Of a DNA stretch of 64,000 nt, positions 4,578 through 55,589 are shown piece after piece. The stretch is taken from assembly GCA_026770705.1 (NCBI GenBank), contig JANJGN010000052.1, positions 4,092,001 through 4,156,000 of the forward strand, in the 5' to 3' direction. Every line of letters starts with the position of its first letter. The stretch's first letter is position 1. The DNA is from Isurus oxyrinchus. Lineage: Eukaryota. The translations under genes were made by a program, and so were the position numbers. Under the pieces are notes generated by a model. It ran no database searches, was not told the origin of the DNA, and was given only the letters and a program-made list of their open reading frames with translations.

Positions 4578-4617
4578 ATGATCGGGAAATCTTACTTCCT
4601 CCTGTCACTTCTCCAAG
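4578..4617 (+). CDS. Siglec gene A leader exon (MIGKSYFLLSLLQ, phase 1)
   Basis: Acceptor at 4534-4535, ACAATG, hydrophobic stretch, CAAG|GTAATA donor; joins V exon to give ...LLQVGLSQ/EW. Confidence 0.8.
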
Positions 4618-10807: not shown

Positions 10808-11176
10808 TTGGACTGTCACAAGAATGGGAAAGTAACACTCCACGAGAGGTGACAGCGCAGGAAGGTTCATGTGTACAGATTCCATGTCATTACAATTACC
10901 CATCACATTTGTTAGAGAAAACACGTGTCGGAATCTGGAATATGAGGAGGGACAAATGGAATACATTGTCTACAGCCTTTCACTCCAAGGATCACAGTCA
11001 CGAGTTACCACGGTTCCACCATCGGACCCGGCTGTCTGGAGACCTGAAAGATGGTGACTGTTCCCTGATTATAAACAACATCAGACGGGGAGATGCAGGA
11101 TTTTTTTTTTTCAGAATAGAATTTGACAATGGTCGGAGCCACAACTATTATCCTGTAACCCAGCTTCACGTTTCTG
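10808..11176 (+). CDS. Siglec gene A V-set exon V1
   Basis: 369 nt, phase 1-1, CCCCAG/GTAAGT; Siglec hallmarks W near the N-terminus, GSCVQIPC, GDLKDGDCSL and FFFRIE with the essential Arg. Confidence 0.93.
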
Positions 11177-13406: not shown

Positions 13407-13775
13407 CTGAACCCTCACAAGAGTGGAAAGGTGACACTCCACGAGAGGTGACAGCGCAGCAAGATTCGTGTGTACTGATTCCGTGTCATTACAGTTATCC
13501 ATCGTGTCTGGAAAACCAACCGCGAGGTGGAGTCTGGTTTAATAATGAGGAACAGATTTCCTGGGCTCCCATTGCCTTTCACTCCAAGGATCACAGTCAC
13601 GAGTTACCACGGTTCCGCCATCGGACCCGGCTGTCTGGAGACCTGAAAGATGGTGACTGTTCCCTGATTATAAACAACATCAGACGGGAAGATGCAGGAC
13701 CTTATTTTTTCAGAATAGAATTTGACAATGGTCCGAGCCATAACTATTACCCTGTAACCCAGCTTCACGTTTCTG
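13407..13775 (+). CDS. Siglec gene A V-set exon V2
   Basis: 369 nt, phase 1-1, open; AEPSQEWKGDTPREV...DSCVLIPC...GDCSL...DAGPYFFRIE. Confidence 0.93.
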
Positions 13776-14588: not shown

Positions 14589-14885
14589 ATTTCACAGATA
14601 AACCCACGATATTCCCTGCTGAAATTATTGCAGGAAAGCGTGTGGATGTAAGCTGCACCTTCAACACAACGTGCAATGGAACAGCAGCACCTGTCTTAAC
14701 CTGGGACACTCCCACTGACGTACCTGGATCAGTCTCAAACACTGTAACTCAGCATGGTGTCACTCTGACCTATACTTCTGTTCTGACCCTGATCCCATCA
14801 CTCAAACACCACGGACACACTCTCAGCTGCAGAGTGAGATATCCATCTGTTTCATCGGAGCTGACCCTTATGCTAACTGTAAAAT
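14589..14885 (+). CDS. Siglec gene A Ig domain following V (C2-1)
   Basis: 297 nt, phase 1-1; DKPTIFP...VSCTFNTTC...LTW...HHGHTLSCRV, including the extra Cys for the V-C2 interdomain bond. Confidence 0.93.
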
Positions 14886-19659: not shown

Positions 19660-19941
19660 ATGCTCCACAGAATCTCTCATTTACTTCTCTTGATATGATT
19701 AACGCTTCATCGATCAATATAATTGAGGGGAATTCTGCAGTGATAATCTGCTCTGTCGAGAGCTTCCCAGCTTCTAACCTGACGTGGCGACATCTTAATG
19801 TCCCAATGAACAGAACAAGTTCCAACAATGAGCTGTGGTTGGTGATTCCTCACCTTACATCCAGGGACACTGGAGACTATCAGTGTGTGGCAGAGAATGA
19901 ACATGGAGCAGTGGAGGGGTTCATAACCATCACTGTGGAAT
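19660..19941 (+). CDS. Siglec gene A C2-2 exon
   Basis: 282 nt, phase 1-1; YAPQNL...EGNSAVIICSVESFPASNLTW...DTGDYQCVAENEHG. Confidence 0.93.
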
Positions 19942-21480: not shown

Positions 21481-21811
21481 GATACACAATCTCCAACTCT
21501 TTCTCAACCATTAAGATGCTCCTTAAAACCATTAAGACACACCGTTAAAACCTCCTGCTTTCAGCGAGCTTTTGCTCACCTCTCCTAATATCTCCTAATG
21601 TGACTCGGGGTCAGATTTTGTCCGAAGGAGGTGAGAAATGATGGAGGGAATTCCAGAGGTTAGGGTCCAGGCAGCTTAAGGCACGGCCGCCAATGGTGGA
21701 GAGATGGGAATGGGAGAATGTGCAAGGGGTCGGAATTGGAGGAGCACAGAGATTTCGGAGAGCTGTGGGGTGTGGGGATTATCTGCTGATTGTTCTCTGT
21801 CTTTGTTCCAG

Positions 21812-22087
21812 ATCCCCCACAGGAGACGATGGTGTCCATCAGCAGATCCTCAGGTGGGATAAGAGTGGGAAGCAATATCACATTAACCTGCTCCAGTGAA
21901 AGTGTCCCACCGATATCTCATTACACCTGGTTCAGGATCGAGGGGAACACCAGCACCCAGTTAAACACAAGTAGCCGCACTCTCTCCTTCACTCCTGTAA
22001 CACGGGAGAATGATGCAGGTTTCTACTGCACAGCGAGGAACCCGGTGGGTAACAGCACCTCCAACATCACCCACCTGAACGTACAAT
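21812..22087 (+). CDS. Siglec gene A C2-3 exon
   Basis: 276 nt, phase 1-1; YPPQET...GSNITLTCSSESVPPISHYTWFR...DAGFYCTARNPVG. Confidence 0.93.
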
Positions 22088-23117: not shown

Positions 23118-23411
23118 ATAAGCCGGAGATTTCCCAGCAGTCGGAGTGCACTCGGAGGTCAGAGGGGGTCACCTGCGTCTGTGTGGCCAACTCCAACCCA
23201 CCCGGAGACCTCACCTGGCACCTGCCCAGTGCCAACATCAGTGGTAACCAAAAAAACGGAGGTTTTGTGTCGTGGCAGGTCAGAGATGGGCATCTGGTGA
23301 CTGGTTCCCTCACCCTGATGAGACCCCAGGATGAGGGGGGAGTGATGGCATCCTGCTCGGTTCAAAACCCACACGGGGAAGCCATGTTCAAGATGTATCT
23401 GTGGGTCAAAG
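23118..23411 (+). CDS. Siglec gene A membrane-proximal C2-4 exon (MAG domain-5-like)
   Basis: 294 nt, phase 1-1; YKPEISQQSECTRRSEGVTCVCVANSNPP...HLPSANIS...VTGSLTL...ASCSVQNPHG, with the C...CxC...SNP pattern of MAG/CD33-related proximal domains. Confidence 0.92.
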
Positions 23412-24295: not shown

Positions 24296-24392
24296 GTAGA
24301 GACTCCAGTAAATGGACAGTAGGATTGTTCACGGCTGGGATCATGTTGAGTGTTTTCCTGGCTGGAATCTTCATCTTCATCTGTGTGAGAAA
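24296..24392 (+). CDS. Siglec gene A transmembrane exon (GRDSSKWTVGLFTAGIMLSVFLAGIFIFICVRK), uncharged
   Basis: TTTTACAG acceptor, AA|GTAAGT donor, phase 1 to 2. Confidence 0.9.
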
Positions 24393-25115: not shown

Positions 25116-25197
25116 GAGAAAGACAGCGATGGAGGAGAGAGTTTCAGGGACCAGTGACATTGCATTGACCCCCAGTTCACTCTCTGTGAAGCACCAG
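25116..25197 (+). CDS. Gene A cytoplasmic exon 1, cassette a (RKTAMEERVSGTSDIALTPSSLSVKHQ)
   Basis: TGCAG acceptor, CAG|GTACAG donor, 82 nt, phase 2 to 0. Confidence 0.82.
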
Positions 25198-25717
25198 GTA
25201 CAGGAGCTGTTTACACTCACTCCAAAGCTTCAATCTCAGTGTGTAGACAACACATGTCCCAGATTCCCTGCCCAGTTACCCACTGATTTGTACCTGTGGA
25301 GTCAGCAATGGTTCAGTATCATGCTGTCTCTCTGTTATGACACAGCAACTGGTAAAGGCTGTTGTTTAAAAACCCAGAGGGAAACTTTAAACAACTGTCA
25401 TAACCTATATTTCCCAGTGGAATGTTTGAGATGCATCTCTAAATTCAGGAATAAGACCACCAGTTCTGGAGATGGGTTTATATCAAACTAAATGAGACAT
25501 ATATTAATTTACACAAGTTAAACATATGCACATGGTTACAAACTAGTATTATCATAACTTTTTAACAAATTCTCAAACTAATCTCCTCTAAGACAACCCA
25601 TAGTCTTTAAGCAGATTCCAGGCATTTTCACCTCACAAGTTCCAGTTTCTCTCTCTATCTCAACCTCCCTTTCTTTCTCTCTCTTTCTCTCTCTCTCATC
25701 CTCTCTCTGATTACAAG

Positions 25718-25795
25718 GTGCATGTTAATGAGCTTCACACCAGAAACTTGAGTGAAGAATCCAAGCCGTCACTCACCAGAGCCATTACCGAGAGA
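25718..25795 (+). CDS. Gene A possible cytoplasmic exon 2, cassette a (VHVNELHTRNLSEESKPSLTRAITER)
   Basis: Pyrimidine tract + AAG acceptor, 78 nt, phase 0-0; weak donor GTGCGA. Confidence 0.45.
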
Positions 25796-25802
25796 GTGCG
25801 AG

Positions 25803-26105
25803 ACTGACAGCGGGTCAGTACTGAGGGAGTGCTGCACAGTCGGAGGGTCAGTACTGAGGGAGAGTTGCACCGTCGGAGGGTCAGTACTGAGGAAGCGCTG
25901 TACTGTCGGAGGGTCAGTACTGAGGGAGCGCTGCACCATCGGAGGGTCAGTACTGAGGGAGCGCTGCACTGTCAGAGGGTCAGTACTGAGGTTTTTGCTG
26001 CGCTGTCGGAGGGTCAGTACTGAGGGAGTGCGAGACTGACAGAGGGTCACTATTGAGGATGTGCTGCACTGTTGGAGGGTCAGTCCTGAGGGAGCACTGC
26101 ACTGC
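25803..26105. repeat. 33-bp minisatellite (gagggtcagtactgagggagtgctgcactgtcg)
   Basis: Directly visible; also at 28930-29097, 38007-38326, 54700-55212, 61070-61302 and 62995-63268. Confidence 0.93.
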
Positions 26106-26249
26106 CATAGGTGGTTTCTTTCATAAGACATGGGAGAGAGAGTTAAACCCACTGAGACACGACTGACATTAACGAAGCTGCACAATAATTTAACCCTATC
26201 AGTGCCAGTAAATGATGTGAGGATGTCTTCTGTTTCCATTTCTCTGTAG

Positions 26250-26498
26250 GGTAAACAGAACGTGCTGATTACTGAGCCCCGGAACACAACCAGAGACACA
26301 ACTAACGAGGGGGAGACCCCAACTCCCCGGGGTCTCTCTGAAGGTGCAGTGGGAGGCGATGCTGGACTTGGGAACCCCGGCAAACCTGAAGAGTTTCTCT
26401 ACGCCAATCCCCAAGTTTTGAGGGTGTCCAGTGGTGATGGGTCTGTCCACAGGGAAGAGGAGACGGAATACGCACAGATCAGGTTTGAGCATAACTGA
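26250..26498 (+). CDS. Gene A terminal exon, cassette a (...FLYANPQV...TEYAQIRFEHN*)
   Basis: CTGTAG acceptor, phase 0, 249 nt; ITSM-like TEYAQI with a degenerate proximal ITIM; AATAAA at 27023-27028. Confidence 0.85.
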   Translation, partial: GKQNVLITEPRNTTRDTTNEGETPTPRGLSEGAVGGDAGLGNPGKPEEFLYANPQVLRVSSGDGSVHREEETEYAQIRFEHN

Positions 26499-27645
26499 AT
26501 GAGAAATGGGGACTGGGAGTGAGGAGGAGTGGGCGTGGGGGTAGGGATTGAGATTCCTGGGAACAGGAAACAACCCACTGGGGGAGAGGGGGAGAGAGGG
26601 AGGAAGGGATGGAATTGGGCTACGGTTGGTGTGGTTTGGAATGAAATGCTTCTCCAGAGAGGACTGGATGCTGAGCCATTGGGGAGTGAGATTCACTGTC
26701 TCTCTCTCTCTCTCTCTCTTCCTCTCTGTCTCTCTCTTTCTTTCTGTGTCAGTCTCTCATTCTCTCTCTCTTGCTCCTCCTTTAAGATGACCGTTAATGA
26801 CTGACTTTGATGACTCAGCTGTTGGTCTCCTGTCCCTAATATCTCCTCATGTGCCTCAGAGTCAGGTGAAATGTGACTAACAATCCCCGGATGAGCCTTG
26901 GGACATTTTGCTACATTGAAGGTGCTATATAAATGCAAGTTGTTGCAGTAACTCTGATCTGCTTCTATTAACAATGGAACCACAGAGGTTCCTTCGACAG
27001 GGCGTGTGTGCAGCAGGGTCACAATAAATACATTGAGCTGTGAGATTTTTCATTCTTACATCGAATGTGGCTGTCACTGGTGATGTCCGCATTGATGCCA
27101 ATCTCTAACTGCCCTTGAGAAGGTGGTGGTGAGCTGCCTTCTTGACCCGCTACAGTGCATGTGGTGTAGGTACACCCACAGTGCTGTTAGAGAGGGAATT
27201 CCAGGATTTTGACCCAGCGACAGTGAAGGAACGGTGATATATTTCCAAGTCAGGATGGTGAGTGACTTGGAGGGGAACTTCCAGGTGGTGGTGTTCCCAT
27301 GTGTCTGCTGTCCTTGTCCTTCTAGATGGTAGAGGTCGCGTATTTGGAAGGTGCTGTTGAAGGAGCCTTGCTGAGTTGCTGCAGTGCATCTTGTAGATGG
27401 TACACACACTGCTGCCACTGTGTGTTCATGGTGGAGGGAGTGAATGTTTAATGTGGTGGATGTGGTATGGATCAATCGGGCTGCTTTGTCCTGGATGGTG
27501 TCGAGCGTCTTGATTCTGTGCTTTGTGCAGAGGTGATTTAAAGAGAGAGTCCAGTCATTGGTGTAAGGTTACAGTGGGCTCTGTGTCTGTGCTGCACTGA
27601 CTCTCTGCTATATGATAACCACAGTGTGATATTTTGTGATTGCAG

Positions 27646-27727
27646 GAGAAAGACAGCGATGGAGGAGAGAGTTTCAGGGACCAGTGACATTGCATTGACC
27701 CCCAGTCCACTCCCTGTGAAACACCAG
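27646..27727 (+). CDS. Gene A cytoplasmic exon 1, cassette b
   Basis: Near-identical to 25116-25197 with splice sites intact. Confidence 0.8.
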
Positions 27728-28842
27728 GTACAGGAGCTGTTTACACTCACTCCAAAGCTTCAATCTCAGTGTGTAGACATCATATGTCCCAGATTCCCAG
27801 CCCAGTTACCCACTGATTTGTACCTGTGGAGTCAGCAATGGTTCAGTATCATGCTGTCTCTCTGTTATGACACAGCAACTGGTAAGGGCTGTTGTTTAAA
27901 ATCCCAGAGGGAAACTTTAAACAACTGTCGTAACCTATATTTCCCAGTGAAATGTTTGAGATGCAGCTCTAAATTCAGGAATAAGACCACCAGTTCTCAA
28001 GATGATTTTATATCAATCTAAATGAGACATTTATTAATTTTCACAAGTTAAACATATGCACATGGCTACAAACTAGTATTATCATAACTTTATAACAAAT
28101 TCTCAAACTAATCTCCTCCAAGACAACCCATAGACTTTAAGCAGACACCAGGCAAAGCATTTTCACCTCACAAATTCCAAATGAGGCTCCTTTCACTTTG
28201 GTTCCTTTGCAGACAAGTGTAGGATTACAGCTGCTTTGCTGTTACAAGCCTCTGCTCTGCACACACAAAACTGCACAAGTTATACCCAGCTCTTGAGTGT
28301 GAAGAAGATGGAGATTGATGGGCTCTTGATTGGTAAAGGGATCAATGGTTAGGAGAGAAGGTGGGAGAATGGGGTTTGTGAAACATATCAGCCATGTATG
28401 AATGGTGGAGCAGACTCGATGGACCGAATGGTCTAATTTCTCCTCCTATGTCTTATGGTCTTATGGCTTCTGTTTGAAGGTAAATTCGCAATGTATCATC
28501 AGGACCTTTGAACTCCATCTCTTCCAATCCCCTTTCATCGTATCAATTTTATTAGTAATATAAACGTTGATTGGTTTAAGATTTCAATCTCAGACTTTGA
28601 ATGTTTTATTTAAAAATACAAATTACCACTTTACCTCTTTGTTTACATCTCAAAACTACTATACATCAAAGCACACAGACTGGCTGTCTTTAATCCAATT
28701 TAAATACACACAGACACACACACAGACTAAACCTCTGTTTAAAAAGACAGTTTGCATTTATAATACAAACATTAATAGATTAATAACACTCTGTCTCTAT
28801 CCCTCCTCTATCTCTCTCTCTCATCCTCTCTCTGATTACAAG

Positions 28843-28920
28843 GTTCATGTTATTGAGCCTCACACCAGGCACCTGAGTGCAGAATCCAAGCCGTCACTCA
28901 CCAGAGCCATTACCGGGGGA
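28843..28920 (+). CDS. Gene A possible cytoplasmic exon 2, cassette b (VHVIEPHTRHLSAESKPSLTRAITGG)
   Basis: 78 nt, phase 0-0, donor GTGGGG. Confidence 0.5.
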
Positions 28921-29216
28921 GTGGGGGACTGACAGCGGGTCAGTACTGAAGGAGTGCTGCACTGTCGGAGGGTCAGTACTGAGGGAGTGCTGCACTGACA
29001 GAGGGTCAGTACTGAGGGAGCGCTGTATTGTCGGAGGGTCAGCACTGAGGGAGTGCTGCACTGTTGGAGGGTCAGTACTGAGGGAGTGCTGCACTGCCAT
29101 AGGTGGTGCCTTTTATCCGATAGGAGAGAGAGAATTAAACAAGTCTGCACAATAATTTAACCCTATCAGTACCAGTAAATGATGTGAGGATGTCTTCTGT
29201 TTCCATTTCTCTGTAG

Positions 29217-29465
29217 GATGAACAGAACGTGCTGATTACTGAGCCCCGGAACACAACCAGAGACACAACTAGTGAGGGGGAGACCCCAGCTCCCCGGGAT
29301 CTCTCTGAAGGTCCAGTGGGAGGCGATGTTGGACATGGGAACTCAGACAAACCTCACGAGCTTCTCTATGCCAACATCAACTTTTCAAAGCTGCCCGGCG
29401 GTGACAGGACTGTGCACAGGAGCGAGGACACGGAATACGCACAGATCAGGTTCCAGAAAAACTGA
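29217..29465 (+). CDS. Gene A terminal exon, cassette b (...LLYANINF...TEYAQIRFQKN*)
   Basis: 249 nt, phase 0; ITIM LLYANI plus ITSM-like TEYAQI, the CD33-related Siglec tail layout. Confidence 0.88.
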   Translation, partial: DEQNVLITEPRNTTRDTTSEGETPAPRDLSEGPVGGDVGHGNSDKPHELLYANINFSKLPGGDRTVHRSEDTEYAQIRFQKN

Positions 29466-48520: not shown

Positions 48521-49610
48521 GAGATCTCTGCACTCCTCTAATTCCGGTCTCTTGAGCTACCCCCGATTCCCATCGTTGTGCCATTGGAAGCCATGCCTTC
48601 TGCTGCCTGGGGCCCCGAGCTCTGGAATTTTATCTCTACACCTCTCCCCACCTCTCCCTCTCTATCTCTCTCTCTCTCACTCTCTCTCTCTCACTCTCTC
48701 CCTCTCTCTCTCTCGCTATCCCTTTTATCCCTCTTTTAATATTCTTCATAACACAACAACATAAGAACATTAGAAATAGGAACAGGAGCAGGCCATTCGG
48801 CCCCTCGAGCCTGCTCTCGCTGATCTGGTTGTGGCCTTAACTCCATTTTCCTGCCTGTCCCACAAACCCTTGACTCCCTTGTCGATCAAAAACCTGCCTC
48901 ACTCAGCCTTGAGTCTATTCAATGGCCCAGCCTCCACTGCTCTCTGGGGAAGAGAATTCCACAGGCTAGCGCCCCTCTGAGAGAGGAAATTCCTCCTCAT
49001 CTCAGTCTTAAATGGGAGAGCCCTCATTCCGAAACTGTGCTCCCTGGTTCTAGATTCCCCCACGAGGGGGAAACATCCTCCCAGCATCCACCCTGTCAAG
49101 CCCCCTCGGAATCGGATATGTTTCAATAAGGTCACCCCTCATTCTTCTAAACTCCAATGGATACAGGCCCAACCTGCTCAACATTTCCTCACAGGACAAA
49201 CCCTTTAATCCCAGGAATCAGCCCAGTGAAGCTTCTCTGAACTGCCTGTACACAATGATCCTGTTACAATCTCACTAACGCCCTGTGCAGCTGTTGCAAG
49301 ACTTCCCTCCTTTTATACTCCATCCCTTTGCAATAAAGGCCAACATTCCACTTGCCTTCCTCATTCCGTGCTGTTCCTGAATGCTGACTTTCTGTGATTC
49401 ATGTACAAGGACACCCAGATCACTCTGTACTGCATTCTGCAGCCTGTCTCCAGTTAAATAATATCCTGTTTTTCTATTCTTCCTGCCAAAATAATTTGTT
49501 GCCATTCTCCTCAGTATTAACCATCCTCCAAATTCAGCCTCATCTGTAAATATCGGGTTCAGTGGATCCACAAACCATTCAGAGATAAATATTGAGATTT
49601 CTCTCCCCAG

Positions 49611-49978
49611 TTGGACTGTCACAAGAGTGGAAAGGTGACACTCCACGAGAGATGACAGCGCAGGAAGGTTCGTGTGTACAGATTCCATGTCATTACAGTT
49701 ATCCATCGTGTCTGGAAAACCAACCGCGAGGTGGAGTCTGGTTTAATAATAAGAAACAGATTCCCTGGGCTCCCATAGCCTTTCACTCCAAGGATCACAG
49801 TCACCAGTTACCACGGTTCCGCCATCGGACCCGGCTGTCTGGAGACCTGAAAGATGGCGACTGTTCCCTGATTATAAACAACATCTGACGGGAAATGCAG
49901 GACCTTATTTTTTCAGAATAGAATTTGACAATGGTCCGAGACATAACTATTACCCTGTAACCCAGCTTCACGTTTCTG
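49611..49978 (+). pseudogene. Siglec gene C V-set exon, disabled
   Basis: Close paralog of V2/V1; AGA to TGA at 49886-49888 plus a 1-nt deletion (368 nt). Confidence 0.92.
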
Positions 49979-50791
49979 GTAAGTGCTGTGTTATAATTAC
50001 TCAACAATTCACATTCAACACTCAGTGGGAAATAACACAAACTGTGATGTTTACATATTAACACAAAACACAGCTTATTATAACACACTGTCTGATTCTC
50101 AATAACCTGGTGATAGCTTCCAGTTCAGTCCTAAAGCAACCTCTAATACTCACTTTAATATCAATGATTAAATGTATTGACTGTGTCCATCAATGTTTTC
50201 GGGATATCCACTCCCACTGATCTCCCTAACCCTGTTTGACAGTCTTACATATCGACAAAAGAATGATTCACATTTCTTTAGCACCTTTCACCACCTCTGT
50301 CGGTCGCAAATGGATTCACAACCAATGAAATAATTCCTGAAATGTCACCCTTGTTGTAATATGGGAAACACAGCAGCCAATTTGTGCACAGGAAGCTCCC
50401 AGAAACAGCAATGTGATCAATAACCTGATCATCTGCTTTAGATGCCGGTTCAGTGATTGGTTCAAATGGATTCTCTCCTGCTGGGATCTGGATAGAATTT
50501 AAATCTGGCAGATTTCGGAGAAAGTAACAAGCCAGTGTGTCAGGAACTGTGAGCTGATCCCCCACCCTCACCTGGGATTGTCAATTCAATTGTCTCAAAG
50601 TGGAAGTGAATTCATCTGAGAGACAGAAACTCCACTAAGTCTGAAAATAGGAAATTCTCTCCTGATCATTGTAACCTCTCAGTTCTGATATCATCCTTGT
50701 AAAAGTGCTTTTTCTTGTGGGACTGTGATTTCTATCTGAACTGATGCTTCACGTTATATTTCTCTAAAAGGATCCATTCTCTGTCTGTTAG

Positions 50792-51088
50792 ATTTCACAG
50801 ATAAACCCATGATATTCCCTGCTGAAATTATTGCAGGAAAGCGTGTGGATGTAAGCTGCACCTTCAACACAACGTGCAATGGAACAGCAGCACCTGTCTT
50901 AACCTGGGACACTCCCACTGACGTACCTGGATCAGTCTCAAACACTGTAACTCAGCATGGTGTCACTCTGTCCTATACTTGTGTTCTGACCCTGATCCCA
51001 TCACTCAAACACCATGGACACACTCTCAGCTGCAGAGTGAGATATCCATCAGTTTCATCGGAGCAGACCCTCGTACTAACTGTGCAAG
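50792..51088 (+). pseudogene. Siglec gene C C2-1 exon (open frame)
   Basis: 297 nt, nearly identical to 14589-14885. Confidence 0.92.
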
Positions 51089-51417
51089 GTAAGTATGGAC
51101 ATCCTTCATTCTACATCAGCACACCCTCAGCGCTGACCCTCTGACAGTGCAGCCCGTTCTCAGTGTCCACATTCTCATGCCTCTCAAAGTGCTTCACAGT
51201 CCATAGAAGTTAACTGATCTTTATTTGATTGTTGCTGAATGAAGAGACAAGCTGTTTAAACTTTACATCTCACACACATTATTTTCCATGGCAACACCTT
51301 CGAGACCACTTGCCAATCTATCAGCACTCTCTTCCCTTTAAATATAAATTGTTGTTCACTCTCTGTTGGTAAACATGCGATCTGTCTTGTTGAGTCCTGC
51401 CCTGATATCTGAATATC

Positions 51418-51556
51418 ACAATGAACAGAACAAGTTCCAACAATGAGCTGTGGTTGGTGATTCCTCACGTTACATCCAGGGACACTGGAGACTATCAGTG
51501 TGTGGCAGAGAATGAACATGGAGCAGTGCAGGGATTCATAACCATCACTGTGGAAT
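51418..51556 (+). pseudogene. Siglec gene C 3' half of C2-2 exon
   Basis: MNRTSSNNELWLVIPHVTSRDTGDYQC...ITVE|GTGAGT matches 19806-19941; 5' half and acceptor missing. Confidence 0.9.
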
Positions 51557-53231
51557 GTGAGTGTACACAGATTTCATCATCTGTCTCAGATTGAAACATG
51601 ACACAAACACAGACAAATATACAGACCTAAATAGACACCTGCAGATACACAATCCCTCGTATATGAGCACACACAAAGACACAAACAAACACACTAGCAC
51701 AATGCTCCCCAGTGGGTTACCTGACCTCCCTCAGTGCTGCACCGGAGAGTTGACCTGGATTCTGAGATTTCTGTTCCCTTTCATGTTTATAGAAGAATAT
51801 GGAAATTGCAAAGTCTATTACAGACACTCAGATGCATAGAGACACTCACAGATACTCTCTGTCTCTCCAACTCTCTATCCTCCTTTAAGAAGCTTCCTGA
51901 AACCTAACCCTTTGACCAGTCAATTGTCCCAACTCCTCCTTACGTGAATCCGTGTGAAATTTTGTTTGAGTATCTGAGAGTAAGAGAGAGGTGGAGAGGT
52001 TTAGGAAGGGAATTCCTGTTGGTGAAAAGCTTACATCATGTTCTCACTTTTCCAGTGCCCGTATTTCACCTGATGTCCAATGTCCTTGTTTATAATAGGG
52101 ATTGCCTATGTAAACGTCACGCTGTAGTTACACTGTGGTGGCACGGTAGCACTTAACCCTTGCATCTCTCAGCTTTTCAAGCAAATCCACTTCCCAGTTT
52201 GCTCCACAAGCTGTGAGTTCATCAGAATTAAATTATTTCTCAAACGATAGATTTGATGTCATTTTATTGAAAACTTCCTCAGTGCCTCCCTGAAGGGTTT
52301 ACACTCTCTGGGAAGCAGGAATAGGCTGGATGTTGGGGAGCTCATCTTTTCCCAGAGAGTAGGGATCCTCGGGAATGTGCTGTCAGTGGGTGTGGTGGTT
52401 GCTGTTTCTATGTTGCCTTCAAGAGGGATCTGGAGTGGTTACTGACTGGGGGAGAGATCATGGAAGCGGAGAATGATACAGCACAGGAGGAGGCCATTCA
52501 GCCCATGGTGCCTGTGCCAGGTCTTTCAATGTTCTATCCAATCAGATCCACTAACCACCACTCCACTTTGCCCCCATCTTCCTCCTTCAAGTGTTTATCC
52601 AATTCCCCTTTTGAAAGTTCCAATTGAATCTGCTTCCACCGCCCTTTCAGGCAGCACCTTCCAGATCACAACAACTCACTCTGTCAAAACAAATTCTCCT
52701 CATCTCCCCCTCCGGTTCATCAATCTGTGTCCCTCTGGTTACCGACCCTCCTGCCCCTTAAATACATCGATCCTGTTCACATCACCCACTCCCTGTGGGA
52801 GTGAGTTCCACATTCTCCTCTCTCTCTGGGTAAAGATTGGAACTGTCTATTAAGCGGGGGGTGTAAGTCCGTGGGGGAGTCCATCTCGATCCTGCCCGAT
52901 TCGCACACACGTCCGAGATGGATTTCCACCCTGCACTAAACGTTTCCAGAATTTTCTACAGCACAATCCTGTACACAGCGATGGAGAGAAACATTGGACA
53001 GGGAGTCCAACAACACAATGATCCATTCTCACCAATGTTCCACGCTAAGGGGAAAGTTCCGATTGTCCACTCTTAGAGTGTTTACAATGAAAACATTCAT
53101 TCCACATTGAATCCCAGTGGATGGGTCAATATTACAGCAAATGTTGCAGTGATATGAAGCTTGATTGTTCAGCCAGAGTGAGAGATTGAAAGCGGAGAGT
53201 CAGTGATGATTTCTTTCTGTGTGTTCTCTAG

Positions 53232-53371
53232 ACAGTGGAGGAGAGATTCTGCACGTGATCCTGATCCTGGGAATACGAGCTGTGATATTCCTTGTGGCTG
53301 TGGTTATCACTATCGCTGGAGTCTGTGTCTGGGAGAGACAAACAGTGAAAGGAAGTCGACAGACTGTTTGA
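53232..53371 (+). pseudogene. Siglec gene C transmembrane exon with intramembrane Arg (SGGEILHVILILGIRAVIFLVAVVITIAGVCVWERQTVKGSRQTV*)
   Basis: CTCTAG acceptor, phase 1; long hydrophobic run with a central R; short Tyr-free tail; downstream 54215-54335 is homologous to the gene A 3'UTR at 29493-29620; AATAAA at 54353. Confidence 0.8.
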
Positions 53372-53394
53372 AGCTTTGTACAGCAACAATCTCA

Positions 53395-53995
53395 TCATGG
53401 AACAGAAGGACGGCATTCGGCCCATCGAGTCCATTCTGTCTCTCTGTAAAGCAATACAGTCAGTCCCATTCCCCCGCTCTATCCCCGTATCCCTGTGAGT
53501 TTATTTCCCCTCATGTGTCCATCCAATTTCCGTTTGAAATCGTTCATCGTCTCCACTTCCACCATCCTCGTAGGCAGCGAGTTCCAGCTCATTACCACTC
53601 GCTGTGTAAAAAAGTTCCTTCTCACATCACCCCCTGTCCAAATCCTTCAATCTGTGTCCCCCAGTCCTTGTCCCATCAGCTAATGGTAACAGCATCTCTT
53701 TGTCTTCCTTATCTAAACCCATCATCATCTTGTACACCTCAATCAGATCCCCCCTCAATCTCCTTTGCTCCAAGGAGAACAACCCCAGCTTCTCCAACCC
53801 AACCTTGTAGCTAAAATCCCTCATCCCTGGACCCATTCTGCTCAATCTCCTCCCTAACCTCTCAAGGACCCTCACTTCCTTCCCAAAGTGAGGAGACCAG
53901 AACTGGACACAATACTCTAGTTGTGACCTAACCAGAGCTTTATAAATGTTCAGCATAACCTCCCTGTGTTTGTTCTCAATCCCTCGATTTATGAA
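53395..53995 (-). mobile_element. CR1 3' fragment
   Basis: LNIYKALVRSQLEYCVQFWSP...LGLFSLEQRRLRGDLIEVYK. Confidence 0.9.
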
Positions 53996-55589
53996 AAGCT
54001 TATTCTTTCCATCAGCACAAACAGCAATTTCCAAGCGGACTCCCATCAGCAGACTGAGTGCAATGAAACATCGGCATGCCTGCTTCTTAATGTACGGAGA
54101 GAAACCTGGAACGAGAGATTCTCCTTCTTCTCCTCAGCAAGCTGAAACTTTTCCTTATACCTGGTGCTCCCCAGTCCTGCTGTGTGGACACATCATAACC
54201 ACGGCATTGTCTGGCTGTGTGCAGCCAACATGGTCGAATAGGAATGAACAGAAATGTGACGTTGCTAAACTCTGTTCTCTGATTGGAATGTGCTTTCTGA
54301 ATGCTGCACCTTTTTCATGCTGCGATAGATTGTAAGAAGCATTTGGGTTATGAATAAAATTACATTGATTAACACAAGTGATAAAAAGTTCAGCCTGTTC
54401 TGTAGATATTTATAGATTAAAATTCATATTTTGCTGCCAAATTCTTGCCTCAAAGACATTACTTCATATTGTCATGTTTTCCAATCAGATGATTTCCTGT
54501 GCCCATCTTTATAATAGAAATTTCCAAAGTATACATGTCACATTGCAGCTGCACACACTCCTGCCAGTGGGTGGTGCGATATGAAGGCTGCCTTGCTGCT
54601 CAGAAACAGTGAGAAATATTCCTGTTTTTGCATGAACTTCATGTGTGCATGAGACACAGGCATCAGATGCAATTTTGTACAATTTGTACAATGTTCTTTA
54701 GACAGCGCAGCACTCCCTCTGTTCAAACCCTCCAACAGTGCAGCACTCCCTCAGTACTGACCCTCCGACAGTGCAGCTCTACCTCAGTTCAAACCCTCCG
54801 ACAGTGTAGCACTCCCTCAGTTCAAACCCTCCGACAGTGCAGCTCTACCTCAGTTCAAACCTTCCGACAGTGTAGCACTCCCTCAGTTCAAACCCTCCGA
54901 CAGTGTAGCACTCCCACAGTTCAGACCCTCCGACAGTGCAGCACTCCCTCAGTTCAAACCCTCCGACAGTGCAGCACTCCCTCAGTTCAAACCCTCTGAC
55001 AGTGCAGCACCCCTCAGTTCAAACCCTCCGACAGTGCAGCACTCCCTAAGTACTGAACCTCCGACAGTGCTGCACTCCCTCAGTACTGACCCTCCGACAG
55101 TGCAGCACTCCCTCGGTACTGAACCTTCGACAGTGCTGCACTCCCTCAGTTCAGACCCTCTGACAGTAAAGCACTCCCTCAGTACTGATCCTCCGACAGT
55201 GCTGCACTACCTCACTAATTAGCGACTGGAAGGTTTATGTTCATTTATCTTTATTTTCCATTCCTATTGAGCAATGAAGCTCCTGATTTGCCACCTTTCT
55301 GTACCTCGTCCAATGCTTCTTTTATCAGGACTTCCACATCGATGTGAAAGAGCCATGATGATAGCAGACAGTCGCACAATGGGAATGGCACTAGGCCAGT
55401 GATCCAGAGGCCCAGGTGAATGCTTTGGAGGTAAGGGTTCAAATCCCACCACGGCAGCTGGAGGAATTTAGATTCGATTAATCAATAAATTTAATTGATT
55501 GATACATTTTTTTCTTGTTCATTTCAGGGATGTTGGTGTCGCTGACTAGGCCAGTATTTGTTGCCCATCCCCAATTGCCTTTGAGAACA

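Follow-up and report, generated by a model that had tools for sequence, protein, structure and literature searches.

We consider it quite probable that the terminal transmembrane (TM) exon of gene C, which encodes an arginine inside the membrane span (hereafter Arg-TM), is spliced on as the final exon in a large shark Siglec-like family, that its Arg likely recruits an ITAM adaptor, and that intact members would serve as the activating counterparts to ITIM-type genes among which they are interleaved, gene C being a broken copy. Gene C lies in the window, i.e., the whole 64,000-nucleotide stretch of Isurus oxyrinchus DNA analysed here, together with an inhibitory-type neighbour, gene A (Table 1). 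Gene C itself is an ordinary pseudogene copy, and the interest lies in the family that it reveals; single genes of this family are already annotated as Siglec-like in RefSeq, and the notable part is the scale and modularity of the array.

Table 1. Features of genes A and C, in window coordinates.
Feature	Position	Strand	Remarks
Gene A leader exon	4578..4617	+	sole leader found in window
Gene A first V exon	10808..11176	+	open; probably V1 of a gene with two V exons rather than a gene of its own
Gene A second V exon	13407..13775	+	top PDB matches Siglec-5, CD33, Siglec-7; YFFR Arg kept
Gene A C2-1 exon	14589..14885	+	
Gene A C2-2 exon, full	19660..19941	+	
Gene A C2-3 exon	21810..22087	+	5' edge within 2 bases
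Gene A C2-4 exon	23118..23411	+	
Gene A uncharged TM exon	24296..24392	+	194 exact motif matches in genome
Gene A first tail, two exons	25116..26498	+	distal TEYAQI motif, without consensus ITIM
Gene A second tail, two exons	27646..29465	+	LLYANI ITIM consensus and TEYAQI
Gene C V-set exon	49611..49978	+	disrupted: TGA at 49886, 1-bp deletion after 49894; TGA common to 8 V exons genome-wide
Gene C C2-1 exon	50792..51088	+	open, AG/GT intact, phase 1-1
Gene C C2-2 3' half relic	51404..51556	+	skipped in spliced contigs seen
Gene C terminal TM exon	53232..53371	+	intramembrane Arg codon 53276-53278; short Tyr-free tail, stop; C2-1 joint GT..AG in X1 and X5 contigs

The Arg-TM exon of gene C is 140 bases long and in phase 1, follows an acceptor AG that ends at 53231, and translates as (D)SGGEILHVILILGIRAVIFLVAVVITIAGVCVWERQTVKGSRQTV-stop, with the TGA at 53369-53371 and no Tyr. 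The initial annotation had proposed an Arg-containing TM span without a Tyr motif before the stop, which is real, and had called the Arg central; the residue is indeed inside the span, but as the 8th residue in the best 21-residue hydrophobic window it sits in the outer half and is not strictly central. The letters AAAG/GAAGTC, read at that time as a donor that lost its T, are present at 53348-53357 but mark no lesion: GT stands at this site in 0 of 78 copies, identical letters occur in 71 of the 78 (one shifted by a frameshift), the proteins of other sharks terminate within the same exon, and contigs cross the site unspliced. C2-3 and C2-4 exons are, as first noted, absent from gene C (none was found), and both this absence and that of the donor are family norms, not lesions.

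Compared with gene A, gene C is 95.1% identical in the V exon, 96.0% in C2-1 and 95.4% in the C2-2 relic. The sharing of V, C2-1 and C2-2 that had been put forward therefore stands for the first two, whereas C2-2 of gene C is a half exon of which just the 3' 153 bases remain and for which no in-frame acceptor was seen. No leader exon for gene C was found in the window, where three masked stretches between genes (139-557 bases) were unreadable in the search, and the only leader, at 4578, precedes gene A. Because no leader was found, and because of the in-frame TGA and the 1-bp deletion, we regard gene C as a pseudogene. Its stop had been likened to the null alleles of Siglec-14/16, a comparison that does not hold, since 8 V exons of the assembly carry this TGA, which was thus spread among paralogs. 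The deletion was unseen in the aligned run contigs, which drop rare variants and in which paralogs confound. Gene C (48762-54089) also looks chimeric: from ~50545 it matches loci L048, L114, L025 and L035 at 95.5-95.7%, while its V exon, unlike this 3' part, is nearest to L173 and L109. In gene A, the tail cassettes (25116-29465) stand in tandem, one with a consensus ITIM and one without, an arrangement common to many paralogs that would permit alternative signalling tails.

Splicing was read from run contigs that are presumed to be RNA, none being recorded as such, and whose source organisms are possibly other species; they demonstrate splicing for the family but not expression of gene C. At locus L050 the C2-1 end is joined to the TM exon in three of four runs (studies P1, P2 and P3), and one 972-base contig spans V, C2-1 and TM. 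The initial annotation had made its reading depend on the TM exon being spliced to Siglec exons and on conservation of the Arg, and C2-1-to-TM joints in contigs of three studies bear out the former. At the coordinates of gene C, X1 and X5, which come from one sample, show V-to-C2-1 and C2-1-to-TM joints with GT..AG; X19 and X20 lack them, and X20 has an unspliced contig. Contigs continue beyond the stop of the TM exon without a splice. No joint from a full C2-2 to TM is present among the 15 joints listed of 306, and a V-to-V joint is weakly suggested by one contig at depth 4.9.

Conservation of the Arg was found across three shark orders. In a search with the TM peptide, LGIRA was kept in 9 of 9 matches, all ending in the same exon, at identities of 91-96% in Carcharodon, 84% in Scyliorhinus and 79-83% in Chiloscyllium; an unfiltered search added Hemiscyllium, Rhincodon and Mustelus, and among its 10 matches (9 with LGIRA, the tenth a repeat protein) there was no non-shark relative. 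The same exon terminates models named CD22-like, sialoadhesin-like and SLAM-family-9-like. On a chromosome-scale contig, a SLAM-like gene has a diverged copy as its last exon (C21:89447547; L100-L102), with a stop in one upstream exon. White shark RefSeq models have the leader-V-C2-TM and V-V-C2-TM layouts of the Arg-TM loci. In two proteins of Hypanus an Arg sits at a similar depth, with 9 of 29 identities to the TM peptide (shuffle p 0.011), a weak hint that the exon may predate the shark-ray split. With a bat Siglec-14 model (P0113) there is no detectable TM similarity (3 of 29 identities, shuffle p 0.175, a weak test on a short hydrophobic segment); an independent origin of the two TM spans would fit this, and the shark genes do not appear to be orthologs of Siglec-14 or -16. 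Within the genome, the TM exon is 98.85% identical and its upstream intron 98.87%, and TM variants are few (dN/dS 1.7); since the exon is no better kept than the intron, in-genome retention of the Arg reflects recent copying, not selection.

The ectodomain combines a V-set of Siglec type with C2-set domains (Pfam V-set and C2-set_2), gene A V having Siglec-5, CD33 and Siglec-7 as its top PDB sequence matches, and the predicted structure of white shark protein P0011 (mean pLDDT 63.5) matches CD33, MAG and Siglec-10 first. The label CD33-related expresses a best-match ranking, with MAG and sialoadhesin scoring close behind. The essential F-strand Arg is present in 84 of the 94 distinct open V exons, and in gene C it lies behind the stop. 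Cysteines in SCVQIPC and DCSL of V and in SCTFNTTC of C2-1, aligned to Siglec-5, would form the B-E and V-C2 disulfides of the Siglec Cys pattern. Named relatives are all from sharks and rays, except one bat protein.

Exact motifs counted 218 Arg-TM, 194 inhibitory-type TM, 427 V and 217 tail exons in the genome, with 0 matches to the reversed-pattern control of each; copies that have diverged are underrepresented in such counts, and the totals may include haplotype duplicates, as a second haplotype may account for part of contigs such as C71, C121 and C385. Contig C52 (4.17 Mb of the 4.98-Gb assembly), at whose end the window lies, carries 66 Arg-TM and 60 inhibitory TM exons, interleaved, and because other contigs may be second haplotypes we take its 66 Arg-TM exons as a safe floor. 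The two TM types alternate along C52 beyond chance, with 84 runs against 63.9 in shuffles and 0 of 10,000 shuffles as high. The Arg codon CGA is kept in 98 of 100 Arg-TM copies among the matches listed. At L032, L038, L042, L046, L055, L085 and L202 there is a third, uncharged TM exon type, 77% identical to that of gene A, the relatives of which have Tyr-rich tails.

We read ~9 kb upstream of 79 Arg-TM exons, i.e., all 66 on C52, the single one on C21, and 12 of the copies on C71, which number at least 33. None of these loci has C2-3 or C2-4, 69 have half of C2-2 and 9 a full C2-2, and the TM exon is normal in 72. With a basic TM residue, a short tail and no ITIM, the Arg-TM members have the sequence features of activating paired receptors. 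The last V, C2-1 and TM exons are all open in 30 of the 78 Siglec-type loci, and 18 of the 78 look complete, with an ATG leader and every V open; the other 12 of these 30 have no leader in the stretch examined (8), a leader without ATG (2) or a broken first V (2). An independent paired system with a dead activating member had been proposed: gene C is dead, and additionally no leader was found for it, but the complete-looking loci indicate that the class is not. Six loci on C52 (L056, L091, L086, L034, L023 and L088) have 7, 7, 6, 5, 4 and 4 open tandem V exons, respectively, ~2.3 kb apart, which could be multivalent heads or alternative exons; mammalian Siglecs are not known to have more than two V exons. 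At L037 and L087, Gln replaces the TM Arg on otherwise open V-C2-C2 genes.

The inhibitory-type set comprised 30 loci from 40 listed, plus gene A, and ranged from V-C2-TM up to V with ~12 C2 exons. The loci L117/L118, L137/L138, L139/L140 and L159/L160 carry up to 11 tandem C2-2 exons, which would give very long stalks. All 29 tails read are open; a consensus ITIM occurs in 14 of the 29 first tails, and nearly all 29 have a distal TEYAQI-like motif. The fraction of V exons that are open is 76 of 104 in Arg-TM cases and 37 of 39 in inhibitory-type cases, although the choice of inhibitory loci, which required a TM exon 100% identical to that of gene A (30 of 40 listed), biases them toward intact copies.

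The ectodomains of the two classes are mixed. Over 143 V exons, mean identity is 0.871 between classes and 0.870 and 0.878 within them, and cross-class identity reaches 99.5% in V and 100% in C2-1. In the V tree there are 20 class-label changes (at least 10 forced by starred branches) against 33.4 when shuffled, i.e., some clustering remains, and a single clade of inhibitory V is rejected (p-AU 1.7e-55). The intermixing and this rejection imply that ectodomain exons move between the two signalling ends, and the V tree fits exchange by conversion or by unequal crossover. The initial claim of an activating-type TM on a Siglec ectodomain common to ITIM-type genes is upheld, the exon being spliced to Siglec exons and its Arg kept across sharks. 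Most of the variation in V falls in loops that surround the ligand site, and pooled dN/dS, a crude measure, was 0.59 for V and 0.64 for the variable loops, giving no sign of positive selection in V.

Such mixing bears on the proposal that genes A and C form an exclusive, one-to-one pair as in Siglec-5/14, with gene C as the converted activating partner of gene A carrying a null allele, which we now judge highly improbable. The two genes are neighbours on one strand of a contig along which TM types alternate, and have 95-96% exon identity and a 2.36-kb common tract at 95%, but such identity is ordinary in the family. Gene A is not the nearest relative of gene C, as in closeness its second V comes 38th among 142 and its C2-1 90th among 94, with 37 V and 89 C2-1 exons closer, and the stop common to 8 paralogs and the missing leader also speak against a null allele of a fixed pair. 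A broader objection would be that only a few genes work and that the array around them is for the most part debris of neutral duplication or a product of an inflated assembly. This is improbable: although 48 of the 78 loci are broken by the open-frame criterion, three locus pairs are >99.8% identical across 8-10 kb and many motif matches sit on small unplaced contigs, 66 and 60 TM exons stand on one contig, most best-paralog identities are 95-99.5%, and there are 94 distinct open V exons and many such genes in the white shark models.

It is also unlikely that the Arg-TM genes encode endocytic lectins or decoys that do not signal, with an Arg that is tolerated or snorkels without recruiting any partner. 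Such a role would agree with the short-tailed members of rays that have no basic TM residue (P0065-P0067, P0073 and P0077) and with the absence of an in-genome selection signal on the TM exon, and adaptor binding is itself argued from analogy. However, LGIRA is kept in three shark orders and in unrelated SLAM-like genes while adjacent residues change, and a ray Siglec with a short tail has an Arg at like depth.

Under the preferred reading, that of a family with interleaved activating and ITIM-type members, the V domain would bind sialic acid via the YFFR Arg, and the TM Arg would pair with the Asp of an adaptor dimer. Recruitment of an ITAM adaptor by the basic TM residue is suggested by papers on known paired receptors (PMC13358205, PMC4042635, PMC5701461). 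Intact Arg-TM members would switch immune cells on through this partner chain, and activating copies may act against microbes that take advantage of inhibitory members. Birth and death is the likely mode of evolution of the array, driven by segmental duplication and by V/C2 exon exchange between signalling ends, with activating copies likely decaying more often than inhibitory ones.

Judged by analogy from general receptor rules, DAP12 would have an even chance of being the adaptor, FcR-gamma or CD3-zeta a lesser one, and a different chain would be unlikely. FcR-gamma partners place their Arg at the membrane edge and Siglec-14 has it deeper; the shark Arg is nearer in depth to that of Siglec-14, hence a slight lean to DAP12. 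FcR-gamma-like and CD3-zeta-like TM exons with Asp occur in the genome. Two TM exons (C1723:88553-88636 and C1648:27629-27712; L072 and L073) match FcR-gamma best (E 2e-10, versus 3e-8 for CD3-zeta), a chain that the available part of a 2014 paper reports as absent in sharks (PMC4016189). No ITAM exon was recognised when the 30 kb surrounding the FcR-gamma-like exon were scanned for motifs, a crude approach, so the evidence for this gene is confined to its TM exon. A search for the DAP10 family yielded no credible exon, its one borderline match having an internal stop. Modelling the TM peptide together with the FcR-gamma-like exon in two copies gave a score of 0.15 (mark 0.34), which carries no weight for or against pairing.

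More tentatively, and at somewhat less than an even chance, sharks may possess an innate Siglec repertoire on the scale of KIR/CHIR, with hundreds of glycan receptors built from swappable modules (1-7 tandem V, 1-12 C2, and an Arg-TM or ITIM end), in which a portable Arg-TM exon made Siglec, CD22-like, sialoadhesin-like and SLAM-like genes activating independently of mammals, and multi-V members would be multivalent sialic-acid sensors or have alternatively spliced V heads. Paired activating Siglecs have been described from primates, and a shark array that has both ends, and whose activating transcripts are spliced, would put paired Siglec signalling among the earliest-branching jawed vertebrates, with a copy number some hundredfold that of human paired Siglecs (two pairs in humans). 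The array also offers cloneable receptors with which to ask which adaptor an ancient Arg-TM uses and whether microbial sialic-acid mimicry drives expansions.

Large paired Ig-receptor clusters, in which near-identical ectodomains occur on both ends and evolve by birth and death, include chicken CHIR, KIR/LILR and teleost NITR/LITR. The Xenopus CEACAMs, as described in the available part of PMC5112662, are alike in having many near-identical ectodomains on inhibitory and activating ends and birth-and-death evolution. The CHIR, KIR/LILR, NITR/LITR and CEACAM clusters are not Siglec-type lectins, whereas the shark ectodomain has the Siglec V-set signature. Siglec-15 resembles the Arg-TM members in having V and one C2, a basic TM residue and an occurrence in fish, but it is a single conserved gene with Lys, according to the available text of PMC7226832, and it matches gene A V at E 1.8e-7, against ~5e-15 to 6e-14 for Siglec-5 or CD33. 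The same 2020 bony-fish study finds fish genomes to be without inhibitory CD33-related Siglecs and, in its available text, does not mention sharks. Shark RefSeq models named CD33-like or Siglec-7/12/13/14-like (e.g., XP_041037236.1 and XP_072325011.1) are the same genes, with leader, V, C2-1 and Arg-TM (281 aa in white shark), under automatic names taken over from Siglecs of mammals, often inhibitory ones; no activating class or array was found in the descriptions of these models. A paper on shark activating Siglecs or on the array was likewise not found in the literature searched, which covered few subscription journals. The closest likeness is to primate Siglec-5/14 and 11/16, where, in the available parts of the sources, ITIM-bearing and short-tailed basic-TM receptors share a V-set and C2 ectodomain (PMC4042635, PMC5701461, PMC13358205), and where V exons are exchanged and activating copies can be non-functional, as in the shark array. 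The primate system as described there consists of two fixed pairs, whereas the shark one is a mixed pool of ~200 and ~200 exons, its lesions being paralog-level pseudogenes and its members having up to 7 tandem V exons.
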